From a virus (lineage: Duplodnaviria; Heunggongvirae; Uroviricota; Caudoviricetes), in IMG/VR virus record IMGVR_UViG_2541047739_000010: DNA of 4,121 nucleotides; one strand, 5' to 3'. Below the pieces are notes generated by a model. That model ran no database searches, was not told the origin of the DNA, and worked only from the letters and a program-made list of their open reading frames with translations. A program made the position numbers and the translations under genes. Positions 1 through 4,121 of this stretch are shown here, piece by piece (positions within the stretch are counted from its first letter, which is position 1; each line of letters starts with the position of its first letter).

Positions 1-84
1 ATGGCGGGTTATTTGTCCTGGTTATTCCCCCGTTGTAAAATCTCACCTAAACTTAACGGTACGGCACCACACTTCGGGGATGAA

Positions 85-276
85 ATGTTCGCGCTGGTAC
101 TTTTTGTTTGCTACCTGGATGGCGGTTGTGAAGATATTGTTGTGGATGTCTACAACACGGAACAGCAGTGTCTTTATTCTATGAGCGATCAACGGATCCG
201 CCATGGCGGTTGTTTTCCGATTGAGGATTTTATAGATGGTTTCTGGCGACCTGCACAGGAATACGGTGATTTTTAA
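85..276 (+). CDS. yebW: Small conserved protein YebW (63 aa). The frame is open from window position 1, but the start is most likely the internal ATG at 85.
   Basis: The translation from the ATG at 85 (MFALVLFVCYLDGGCEDIVVDVYNTEQQCLYSMSDQRIRHGGCFPIEDFIDGFWRPAQEYGDF) matches E. coli YebW as I remember it. A GGGGA Shine-Dalgarno sits at 76-80, 4 nt upstream of that ATG, and the stop is TAA at 274-276. The gene lies next to pphA as in E. coli K-12. The upstream part of the frame cannot be judged because the window starts at 1. Confidence 0.7.
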   Translation: MFALVLFVCYLDGGCEDIVVDVYNTEQQCLYSMSDQRIRHGGCFPIEDFIDGFWRPAQEYGDF

Positions 277-1708: not shown

Positions 1709-1987
1709 TTAAAACCACTCCCTGAGCGGGCGCTCTGGTGTAACCACCCACTCACGGAACACGGAATCATCAAATCCATCGTCAAGAAGACGGATATTAA
1801 CAAAGTACCCTTCGTTTCGCGTGTATTCTGGTTCTCCGTCATCAGAAACATCTGTCTCCCTGAACGTAAAACCAATCTCATCAACCAGAACGGCATTCTG
1901 CAGCTCTTCGTCCTCTTCCCAGTTAAGTTTCCTGAGAAATGCCCTGAAATCTGCTTTATCACTGAAACGCAACGTGAAATCTCTCAC
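1709..1987 (-). CDS. Hypothetical acidic protein (92 aa) translationally coupled to the tail fiber gene; possible non-canonical tail fiber chaperone or accessory protein.
   Basis: The GTG start at 1987-1985 overlaps the tail fiber TGA stop (1986-1984) as GTGA; there is no internal Met. Composition is protein-like and rich in Asp/Glu, whereas the overlapping 118-aa ORF in another frame is Arg-rich junk. It shows no resemblance to lambda Tfa as I recall it. Confidence 0.6.
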   Translation of the reverse strand: MRDFTLRFSDKADFRAFLRKLNWEEDEELQNAVLVDEIGFTFRETDVSDDGEPEYTRNEGYFVNIRLLDDGFDDSVFREWVVTPERPLREWF

Positions 1988-4053
1988 TCCACAACCTCCC
2001 CAAGCTGCGCATCTGTTAGCTCTTTATGCCAGAGACGAAAATTCCTCACATGCCCAAATAAATGGCGTAATCCTGCTGTAGTTTGTCCACCAATGCGAAT
2101 GGTTGCTGTACTCCGGATATATTCCCATGTGGTTTTTGTTTCGCTGGATATACGCCCGTTACTTACTGCACATGTAGACTGATCTGACTTTACACGCATC
2201 CCCATAACCATTTTTTTCAACGATGCGTTTTCGTTAACACGCCTATTTGATCCACCAATATCGCAATAAGGAAATCCGTCTGGCCCATCTGCCGAAGATC
2301 CGAAGCCAAGAATAATAGCCGCTCCGGTTTGATGACCGCCGGTATCAAAAACACGTGGCGCTGCATTTGGCGTTTTATACCAGTTCTTATGTACCTCACA
2401 AAGAACCGTAAAAGGAAGATTATAAAGATTATTCTTAATCGGAACTGTAACCATATCGCTTGCCCGCGTTACCGGTGCCGTCCCCGTAACAATAAAAGAT
2501 GATGCGCCTGTACCAGCCTCAATCTGTGGAGTGGTTACATCGAGATAATCCCCTGATGCAACCATCTGCCCTGTATCCGGAGAATACTGGACAAAACCAC
2601 CAACCGTATTTTCTGTTGTATCTGCTTTTAATGTAGCCTCAAAAAATATCCAGCCAGTTGCATCATCCTTAACAGACCTTGCTGTAACACGGCTTGTCTG
2701 ACCTGTCTTGCTAATTATGCGGGTGGTAAGGTTCAGGTTTGCTGCTCCTATTGATGTCCTTACCTCCCCATCATAATGTTCAAATAAAATACGAACGGCG
2801 ATATTATCAACTTCACTTTTTACCCGACAGGATATAGTTACATGCTTTTCGTCCCCTGAAGTATCAACCCCTCCGGTACTCGAATACAGTCCGATAATGG
2901 TATGCGCTTTACTTGTACCAACAATCGAATCCTGTACGACAAACCGGCCATAATTAAACCCGAAACTATCTGTGCCTGTTTCTGTAACGTCCAGTGAAGT
3001 TGACTTATTCCACTTCGAAGGGTCTGTACTGTTCGGGAAGAAGTTCGTTCTTTGCCCCTCAATAAGCAGGCCATCACACTCAAATCGTGGCTCATTAATT
3101 TCCGCCGTTTTCAGTTCGCCAGATTTGTTGATATATGTTGCCGTTGATGCGCGACTGAAATTAACCTGTTTATCACTGGCAACCTGAACCACATTATCAC
3201 CAATCTTCACTTTTTTATAACCCGGAGAATAGCCCGTAATCATATCCAGCGAATCATTAAAGGGTATCCACACATCCGGCAGCGGCTGTAAAACATATCT
3301 GTACGGCTCTGCTGTCTGGTTTGCGTATTCTCTGGCAGCATCTTCACTTGCTTTTGCTGCCGTCTGGCTTGCTGCCGATGCTTTCGCCGAGTTCGCCGCC
3401 GCTGTTTCGCTCACCTTTGCGTTGGCTTCACTGTCTTTGGCATTCGTCTCACTGGTTTTCGCTGCCGTCTGGCTGGATTTTGCGTTTTTTTCGCTGGCCT
3501 TTGTGGCTGTCTCGCTATTTTTCGCGCTGGTTTCTGATTTTTTGGCTGCTGTCGCGGAGTTTGCCGATGCAGTCTGCGAGGCCGCTGCCGCCTGTGCGCT
3601 GTTAGCTGCATTCGTTTCTGAGGTTTTCGCCGCGTTCTTCGATGATGCCGCTGCAGTTTCGGATTTCTTTGCTGCCGCTGCGCTCTGTGATGATGCTCCG
3701 GCATGACGTGCCACTTCATTCACCATCAGCTCAAAACGGCGCAGTGCCTCCGGACGAACATCATCCTCCGTCATGGCACCGAGAAAATCATTCAGCGTAC
3801 CTGGTCTGGAACCTTCATAGACGGTAATGGTCCCAACATGTGATGGCTGAGAACCCTCAATCCACAGGATGACGCTGTACTGACCATACTCAACGTCCAT
3901 ACTGTAACGCCCGGCTTCATCCGGATTTTCAGAGGCCACCGTGTTCACCAGTACCGTGGTGCTGTTACGCTTTGCCTTCAGTTGAATAGTGCAGTTCTGT
4001 ATTGGTTTTCCCGCACCATCTTTCAGCACACCTGAGATTTTTACTGCTGCCAT
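1984..4053 (-). CDS. stf: Lambdoid side tail fiber protein (Stf family), about 689 aa, mosaic: conserved N-terminal domain, Ala/Ser/Thr-rich SETNA-type repeats, and a divergent C-terminal receptor-binding region that probably ends in a LamG/ConA-like jelly-roll domain.
   Basis: The N-terminus MAAVKISGVLKDGAGKPIQNCTIQLKAKRNSTTVLVNTVASENPDEAGRYSMDVEYGQYSVIL... is nearly identical to the lambda Stf N-terminus from memory. The repeat region (KKSETAA, KTSETNA, KNSETAT...) resembles the lambda Stf repeats. The C-terminal end, GHVRNFRLWHKELTDAQLGE, resembles the characteristic end of laminin-G-like domains. The six-frame ORF starts at a GTG (4059); the ATG at 4053-4051 with a GGAG 5 nt upstream is preferred. 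Confidence 0.9.
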   Translation of the reverse strand: MAAVKISGVLKDGAGKPIQNCTIQLKAKRNSTTVLVNTVASENPDEAGRYSMDVEYGQYSVILWIEGSQPSHVGTITVYEGSRPGTLNDFLGAMTEDDVRPEALRRFELMVNEVARHAGASSQSAAAAKKSETAAASSKNAAKTSETNAANSAQAAAASQTASANSATAAKKSETSAKNSETATKASEKNAKSSQTAAKTSETNAKDSEANAKVSETAAANSAKASAASQTAAKASEDAAREYANQTAEPYRYVLQPLPDVWIPFNDSLDMITGYSPGYKKVKIGDNVVQVASDKQVNFSRASTATYINKSGELKTAEINEPRFECDGLLIEGQRTNFFPNSTDPSKWNKSTSLDVTETGTDSFGFNYGRFVVQDSIVGTSKAHTIIGLYSSTGGVDTSGDEKHVTISCRVKSEVDNIAVRILFEHYDGEVRTSIGAANLNLTTRIISKTGQTSRVTARSVKDDATGWIFFEATLKADTTENTVGGFVQYSPDTGQMVASGDYLDVTTPQIEAGTGASSFIVTGTAPVTRASDMVTVPIKNNLYNLPFTVLCEVHKNWYKTPNAAPRVFDTGGHQTGAAIILGFGSSADGPDGFPYCDIGGSNRRVNENASLKKMVMGMRVKSDQSTCAVSNGRISSETKTTWEYIRSTATIRIGGQTTAGLRHLFGHVRNFRLWHKELTDAQLGEVVE
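3320..3700 (-). repeat. Intragenic imperfect tandem repeats encoding the Ala/Ser/Thr-rich fibrous shaft of the tail fiber.
   Basis: Repeated DNA motifs occur here, for example GCTGCCGTCTGGCT at roughly 3356-3369 and 3461-3474, together with repeated TTTCGCTGG-type units. This produces the cluster of spurious overlapping ORFs at 3321-3719 and corresponds to the protein repeats of the KxSETNA type. Confidence 0.5.
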
Positions 4054-4064
4054 ATCCACTCCAC

Positions 4065-4090
4065 AAAAAAGCCCGCCTGAACCGGCGGGC
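4065..4090 (-). terminator. Rho-independent terminator on the minus strand, immediately upstream of the tail fiber start.
   Basis: A perfect 7-bp GC stem, GCCCGCC (4071-4077) with GGCGGGC (4084-4090), encloses a 6-nt loop. The A-tract at 4065-4070 on the plus strand is a U-tract after the hairpin on the minus-strand transcript. It lies between the end of the upstream (unseen) gene and the stf ribosome-binding site. Confidence 0.55.
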
Positions 4091-4121
4091 TGTCATAACA
4101 CTGTGTTACCTGGCTAATCAG

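Follow-up and report, generated by a model that had tools for sequence, protein, structure and literature searches.

The side tail fibres of phage lambda are anchored by a collar: residues 1–94 of lambda Stf form a collar domain, twelve of which ring the gpV/gpM junction and are connected via flexible linkers to four trimeric fibres (PMC12617516). The lateral fibres of siphoviruses usually attach first to a facultative receptor, the O-antigen or another glycan, and the central fibre subsequently engages a porin (PMC8594841, PMC11990801); the head spike fibre of RcGTA, a gene transfer agent (GTA), was found experimentally to attach reversibly to capsular polysaccharide (PMC7296036, PMC10218006). 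The stretch of DNA analyzed here (4,121 nucleotides of the caudoviricete record IMGVR_UViG_2541047739_000010; hereafter, the window) is the junction of an Escherichia coli chromosome with one arm of a lambda-like prophage, adjoining pphA. It encodes an intact side tail fibre (Stf) of 689 amino acids that carries a lambda-type collar and a two-domain head unrelated to that of lambda. The best overall explanation is probably a lambda-like Stf whose head binds polysaccharides reversibly.

Architecture and mosaicism of the fibre

The N-terminal residues 3–95 of Stf are a lambda-type collar domain. They match the N-terminal collar domain of lambda gpStf (PDB 9e7m, residues 1–94) with an E value of 7.8e-47, and PF08400 (phage_tail_N) matches residues 3–132 with 219.1 bits (gathering cut-off 26.6). 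Compared with lambda orf-401, which is the N-terminal part of Stf, residues 3–95 are 84.9% identical, residues 3–113 are 83.8% identical, and residues 3–132 are 80% identical. The initial annotation had called the first ~110 residues almost identical to lambda Stf; the anchor is indeed homologous, but given an identity of 84–85%, this wording is somewhat overstated.

The anchor is followed by a region rich in alanine (34%) and serine (17%; residues 113–250), which contains nine SE[TKDA] motifs between residues 131 and 236, all spaced at multiples of seven. Residue autocorrelation reaches 0.42, 0.44, 0.41, and 0.43 at lags 7, 14, 21, and 28, compared with ~0.09–0.20 at other lags, in agreement with the SETNA-type repeats recognized initially. 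Tandem Repeats Finder reported nothing for the stf gene, which indicates that the repeat is degenerate in the DNA and present at the protein level only. The likeness to the repeats of lambda is merely compositional (53% identity in a forced global alignment and scattered short BLAST matches). The region is probably a trimeric coiled-coil stalk; the trimeric state is taken over from lambda, and the heptad periodicity is compatible with it. Several open reading frames of 90–100 codons lie in other frames or on the opposite strand over the same region (3321–3719, both strands) but are most likely by-products of a low-complexity, GC-rich coding sequence rather than genes. Between stalk and head lies a conserved junction, in which residues 257–269 (PLPDVWIPFNDSL) are nearly invariant in an alignment of 49 family members.

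Beyond residue ~250, the divergence from lambda Stf is as complete as initially described: a comparison of residues 250–689 with all frames of lambda positions 15,000–24,000 (J, lom, stf, and tfa) yielded no match (best E value 1.6), and neither orf-401, orf-314, nor the DNA of tfa shows similarity to this part of the protein. Pfam produced no match above threshold in the head, but NCBIfam NF048003 (GTA_spike_fiber) matches residues 330–531 with 72.1 bits (cut-off 36) over profile positions 1–181 of 182. The family-profile search retrieved the RcGTA head spike fibre Rcc01080 with an E value of 1.7e-43. Other matches to the middle domain were Pa193 gp46, E217 gp45, and a gp17 tail fibre (1e-17 to 2e-15), and the last domain matched pentraxins (E value 5e-4 in one run), an S-layer LamG-like protein, and BoNT/D (~1e-3 to 1e-2).

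Because a first homologue search gave only proteins with at least 95% identity, which were unusable as an alignment, relatives were collected at 50% clustering. There were 3075 representatives at an E value of ≤0.001, and the homologous region is nearly always C-terminal, behind N-terminal parts of widely differing length. An AlphaFold2 model of residues 250–689, based on an alignment of 48 representatives, is all-beta, with a mean predicted local distance difference test score of 91.2 and a predicted template modelling score (pTM) of 0.88. Two carbohydrate-binding modules, CBM40 and AbnA domain 4, rank with the best structural matches of both head models, and several matching BFVD entries carry the description of the ConA-like lectin/glucanase superfamily.

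The predicted structure and the profile matches support a fold of the last ~150 residues as a curved, two-sheet beta-sandwich of the ConA-like/LamG/pentraxin type, in line with the lectin-like end proposed in the initial annotation; this domain closes with the conserved motif G-H-[IV]-R-N-[FL]-R-[IL]-W-H. The annotation had, however, treated the head as a single module and missed the larger GTA head-spike-fibre domain (residues ~299–546). This middle domain is, according to the model, most probably a second ConA-like sandwich, because the model of the whole head aligns with AbnA domain 4 and Pa193 gp46 over 183–224 residues, which exceeds the 154 residues of the last domain. It is close to certain that the protein consists of collar, heptad stalk, conserved junction, spike-fibre domain, and LamG-like domain. 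Conservation within the family alternates along the head, with framework segments (residues 250–349, 510–569, and 650–689) flanking two hypervariable cores (residues 350–509 and 570–649), as would be expected of cores that determine specificity and of frameworks at which recombination takes place.

That tail fibres evolve by swapping receptor-binding modules while the anchor is conserved is textbook knowledge. The domain swap postulated in the initial annotation is real insofar as a lambda-type anchor and stalk are joined to an unrelated head, but it is neither recent nor unusual. Collinear relatives exist over almost the full length: Stf shares ~95% identity over residues 3–689 with the fibres of ev243 and PhiR49_2, both of them isolated phages, and 59% over residues 3–688 with the side tail fibre of phage 21. 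phrog_1419 matches nearly the whole protein (1185.9 bits, in two stretches, the better one covering residues 205–688), and RefSeq WP_021526714.1 is identical over the full length. Among 5426 complete E. coli genomes, 296 contain close relatives that cover at least 80% of the DNA of the head region, and relatives of the protein are annotated from O25b:H4-ST131 isolates.

Yet the identities of individual segments reveal breakpoints within this collinearity. Compared with phage 21, the anchor is 87% identical, the stalk 56%, the junction 79%, the middle domain 57%, and the segment of residues 565–632 31%. Stf and its counterpart in ev243 differ in some N-terminal residues, are 99–100% identical over residues 113–546, and share only 73% of the amino acids in residues 565–632, with a nucleotide identity that falls from 94–100% before this patch to 66–72% within it and returns to 90–100% at the end. 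In this patch, Stf shares 94% identity with LtfA of FGS017, a T5-like Salmonella phage, and 90% with the lateral fibre of the Seuratvirus KurtStettler; the anchors of these two fibres are unrelated to that of Stf (17–35% identity). These identities suggest that temperate and virulent phages exchanged the patch recently. Because of the collinear fibres of phage 21, ev243, and PhiR49_2, the near full-length phrog_1419 match, and the identical RefSeq entry, Stf is an old and common fibre allele that is mosaic at several scales and not a novel chimera. The gene itself and closely related genes of phage isolates have been recorded before, as has the general principle that fibres are mosaic. The searched literature contained no paper on the side tail fibre of phage 21 and no published receptor for the fibres of phage 21, ev243, or PhiR49_2.

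Close homologues of the head or the 92-amino-acid gene downstream of stf also occur in records labelled “Campylobacter phage” (MG065692, MG065676, and MG065652) or “Listeria phage” (OR847733 and OR848352). The size and content of these records resemble T5-like, Seuratvirus-like, or fragmentary coliphage sequence; their host labels may be wrong, or the sequences may represent contamination.

Proposed function of the head and its putative partner gene

Carbohydrate binding by the head is suggested by its fold and by its homology to the capsule-binding head spike fibre of RcGTA; the ligand is probably a glycan. As in Ur-lambda, twelve copies of Stf would form a collar at the junction of tail tube and tail tip, from which four trimeric fibres extend. 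Their lectin-like heads would bind surface polysaccharide (O-antigen, capsule, or the core of lipopolysaccharide [LPS]) reversibly, through one or both hypervariable cores, and hold the virion on the cell surface, which would make it likelier that the central fibre J meets its terminal receptor. Host specificity would be altered when recombination occurs at the conserved frameworks, a process that may have exchanged parts of the head between temperate phages of the lambdoid type and virulent phages of the T5-like and Seuratvirus groups. A translationally coupled acidic protein of 92 amino acids, in place of lambda Tfa, would assist the head in folding or assembly.

The GTG start codon of the gene encoding this protein overlaps the stop codon of stf (GTGA) and is preceded by GGGAGG at a distance of 7 nucleotides. 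Homologues are present in 186 phage records and, among the matches listed, nearly all abut or overlap a tail fibre gene; they fall into at least six unrelated groups (lambdoid, T1-like, T5-like, Queuovirinae, Dhillonvirus, and rV5-like). The protein is named “hypothetical” or “prophage protein” in all sources and has no match in PDB and no significant match in Pfam or NCBIfam. When both small genes downstream of stf, which encode 92 and 95 amino acids, were compared with Pfam, all matches remained below the cut-off (best E value 0.078), and none was to a Tfa family. In four sampled phages, the small protein is 93, 63, 44, and 48% identical to that of the window; the middle domain gives corresponding values of 99, 57, 61, and 55%, and the last domain gives 85, 45, 89, and 86%. 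Among these phages, the identity of the small protein appears to track the middle domain and not the adjacent LamG-like patch. Because the gene occupies the position of tfa, shows conserved linkage, and is accompanied neither by a Tfa-type gene nor by a peptidase S74 chaperone domain (pfam13884) in the C-terminal segments (Pfam, E values up to 10), its product is a candidate chaperone or adaptor that takes the place of Tfa in the folding or assembly of the head.

Several points weigh against a polysaccharide-binding head. ConA-like, LamG, and pentraxin folds mediate protein–protein contacts as well. The match of Laminin_G_3 (PF13385) to residues 632–683 is below threshold (13.6 bits; cut-off 27.6; E value 0.078), and the structure predictions are of monomers. 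The searched literature contained no binding experiment on Stf or its close relatives, and the role proposed for the 92-amino-acid protein is deduced from gene linkage. The T5-like and Seuratvirus relatives possess a second fibre gene after the small gene, and their heads may also be branching points.

A more specific version of glycan binding, which is possible but clearly the less probable choice, assumes a collectin-like fibre: a trimeric stalk would carry three separate, independently folded tandem-lectin heads that bind glycans multivalently and with low affinity, and the 92-amino-acid protein would be a partner specific to heads with a GTA-spike-fibre domain. Both the pTM of the monomer model and the homology to RcGTA, whose head spike fibre is a single subunit, are compatible with such an arrangement.

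An outer-membrane protein as the receptor of the head, by analogy with OmpC for lambda Stf, is unlikely; the lectin-like fold would then be a mere scaffold. Of the sequence relatives studied experimentally, the head spike fibre of RcGTA is the closest and binds capsule, the top structural matches of both models include carbohydrate-binding modules, and a family of 3075 representatives with hypervariable cores suits variable glycans better than conserved porins. Even less likely is a head that mainly serves to dock another adhesin or a further fibre, with the 92-amino-acid protein as an adaptor. Branched LtfA/LtfB fibres are documented for phage DT57C (PMC4728585), and in FGS017 and KurtStettler the homologues of stf and of the small gene precede a second large fibre-like gene. 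However, there is no second fibre gene in this prophage, phage 21, or ev243, where the module closes with a membrane protein of 95 amino acids, and LtfA of DT57C represents another allele, which has an autocleaving chaperone domain at its C-terminus that Stf lacks.

Many prophages of E. coli are defective, and even the stf of lambda PaPa is frameshifted, but an inert relic of a defective prophage is a very improbable explanation for a reading frame that is intact, preceded by a ribosome-binding site (GGAG at 4059–4062, 5 nucleotides ahead of the ATG) and a complete upstream tail module, identical in 35 UniRef entries from E. coli, and ~95% identical to genes of the plaque-forming isolates ev243 and PhiR49_2. 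An enzymatic head, in the form of a ConA-like glucanase that depolymerizes glycans, was rejected as equally improbable, because a GH16-type motif is absent and non-catalytic modules score higher. Polysaccharide binding by a non-enzymatic, lectin-like head is retained here as the probable reading.

Neighbouring genes and prophage junction

The sequence common to all 5426 complete E. coli genomes stops at position ~1098, upstream of pphA, which places the boundary between chromosome and prophage at this point. It is followed by an AT-rich stretch of ~180 bases (1099–1275; 31–34% G+C), an arrangement present in only five genomes; no att core was identified at ~1098 or within 1099–1275. A search of the whole window at the gathering thresholds of Rfam gave zero matches, and no small RNA such as SdsR/RyeA lies inside it. 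The chromosomal yebW appears in the mechanical list of open reading frames as a version of 91 amino acids that is extended from the edge of the window (1–276, plus strand).

All genes after the AT-rich stretch are on the minus strand: those of 95 and 92 amino acids, stf, and, at the right edge, the end of lom (Table 1). In NZ_OZ547117, whose locus is 99% identical, stf is followed by lom, J, I, K-like, L, M-like, and tape measure genes, which together represent a complete tail module; the order J–lom–stf puts the protein in the exact position of lambda stf. Phage 21 has an annotated terminator and ribosome-binding site at the position of the terminator-like hairpin found here between lom and stf. 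The last gene of the prophage arm encodes a protein with hydrophobic stretches at residues 3–24 and 74–93, whose counterpart in phage 21 is annotated as “putative membrane protein”. It is ~90% identical among lambdoid phages with different Stf heads; its constancy irrespective of the head allele places it outside the specificity module. Distant relatives adjoin tail fibre assembly genes in phages of Halomonas and Aeromonas.

Table 1. Features of the window and domains of Stf, ordered by position.
Feature	Stf residues	Position	Strand	Remarks
yebW		85–276	+	Chromosomal; 63-amino-acid version as annotated in the matching genome
pphA		277–933	−	Chromosomal
Membrane protein, 95 amino acids		1412–1699	−	Two hydrophobic segments; phrog_1443; last gene of the prophage arm
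Acidic protein, 92 amino acids		1709–1987	−	Isoelectric point 4.3; phrog_1361 (E value 1e-40); in place of lambda tfa
stf, side tail fibre, 689 amino acids	1–689	1984–4053	−	ATG at 4053, TGA at 1984–1986; intact reading frame
LamG/pentraxin-like (ConA-like) domain, C-terminal	547–689	1987–2415	−	Predicted beta-sandwich; hypervariable core ~570–649
Putatively exchanged patch in LamG-like domain	565–632	2158–2361	−	Segment-wise identities
GTA head-spike-fibre domain	299–546	2416–3159	−	Predicted beta-sandwich; hypervariable core ~350–509
Stalk/head junction	251–298	3160–3303	−	Conserved; 49-sequence family alignment and conservation profile
Heptad repeat AKxSExxA	113–250	3304–3717	−	Rich in Ala, Ser, Lys, Thr, and Glu
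Collar/anchor domain	3–95	3769–4047	−	Attaches fibre to tail; PF08400 reaches residue 132 (position 3658)
Terminator-like hairpin, lom/stf gap		4070–4091	−	Scan; 8-pair stem with 7 G–C pairs, then T run

Significance and comparison with known systems

The importance of these findings is modest, and the allele is common in prophages of E. coli. The reading of the head as two lectin domains, the patch common to Stf and virulent phages, and the putative partner gene, none of which was found described in the searched literature, are modest additions at the level of annotation. Database entries that carry no more than the name “prophage tail fiber N-terminal domain-containing protein” can be given a domain description, from the collar through the coiled coil and the GTA-spike-fibre domain to the LamG-like domain, and the framework segments around the two hypervariable cores would be natural splice points for lambda-based delivery particles with new host ranges. 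If its proposed role is true, the 92-amino-acid protein would be an unrecognized but widespread fibre partner across temperate and virulent siphoviruses and myoviruses.

Stf belongs to the families PF08400, phrog_1419, and NF048003. It resembles gpStf of Ur-lambda (P03764; 9e7m) in its position after J and lom, in its collar, and in its Ala/Ser-rich heptad stalk, and presumably shares the twelve-copy collar with four trimeric fibres. By contrast, the distal parts of the two proteins are unrelated after residue ~250, tfa is replaced downstream by the gene of the acidic protein, and the tip of the lambda fibre is reported to bind OmpC, whereas the head of the present fibre is lectin-like. Phage 21, ev243, and PhiR49_2 (phrog_1419) possess the same module of three genes (stf, the 92-amino-acid gene, and a membrane protein of ~95 amino acids), although the hypervariable cores of phage 21 Stf differ from those of the present protein. 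Stf of Gifsy-1, which binds the Gal II residue of the LPS core, had been considered as a functional analogue but was dropped; it is a lambda-type Stf whose similarity extends along its whole length, and is thus uninformative on the present head.

Rcc01080 of RcGTA (NF048003) is homologous to residues ~299–546 and is likewise a flexible appendage, responsible for the first, reversible binding to the capsule. However, it is located on the capsid vertices as a single subunit that a short N-terminal peptide holds in place, and lacks the LamG-like domain, the collar, and the coiled coil. Among the other structural relatives, gp46 of the Pseudomonas phage Pa193 (9b45) and gp45 of the Pseudomonas phage E217 (8env) are components of the baseplate wedge or triplex of myoviruses, unlike a siphovirus side fibre, and the sequence similarity of the last domain to LamG, pentraxin, and CBM40 domains (PF13385) is marginal, as reflected in the Pfam score and profile E value given above.

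The lateral (L-shaped) fibre proteins of T5-like phages and those of Seuratvirus, T1-like, and Dhillonvirus phages end in the same two-domain head and are accompanied by the 92-amino-acid gene; the LamG-like domain of Stf is 89% identical to that of FGS017 LtfA and 86% identical to that of KurtStettler. These fibres are thought to bind the O-antigen as a facultative first receptor, and many have a second fibre gene downstream. In the regions concerned (positions 2960–7329 of the FGS017 record and 4004–7572 of the KurtStettler record), this second large gene, which is absent from the lambdoid versions, is annotated as “tail fiber protein” in one of the two virulent relatives and as “putative lateral tail fiber chaperone” in the other; its presence suggests branched fibres in these phages. 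The classical Ltf of T5 and LtfA/LtfB of DT57C (PMC4728585) end in an autocleaving peptidase S74 chaperone (pfam13884) that is absent from Stf, and DT57C LtfA/LtfB, considered as the nearest characterized T5-like fibres, were set aside for this reason. The protein encoded in the window is thus neither a lambda-type distal fibre nor a T5/DT57C-type fibre with an autocleaving chaperone.

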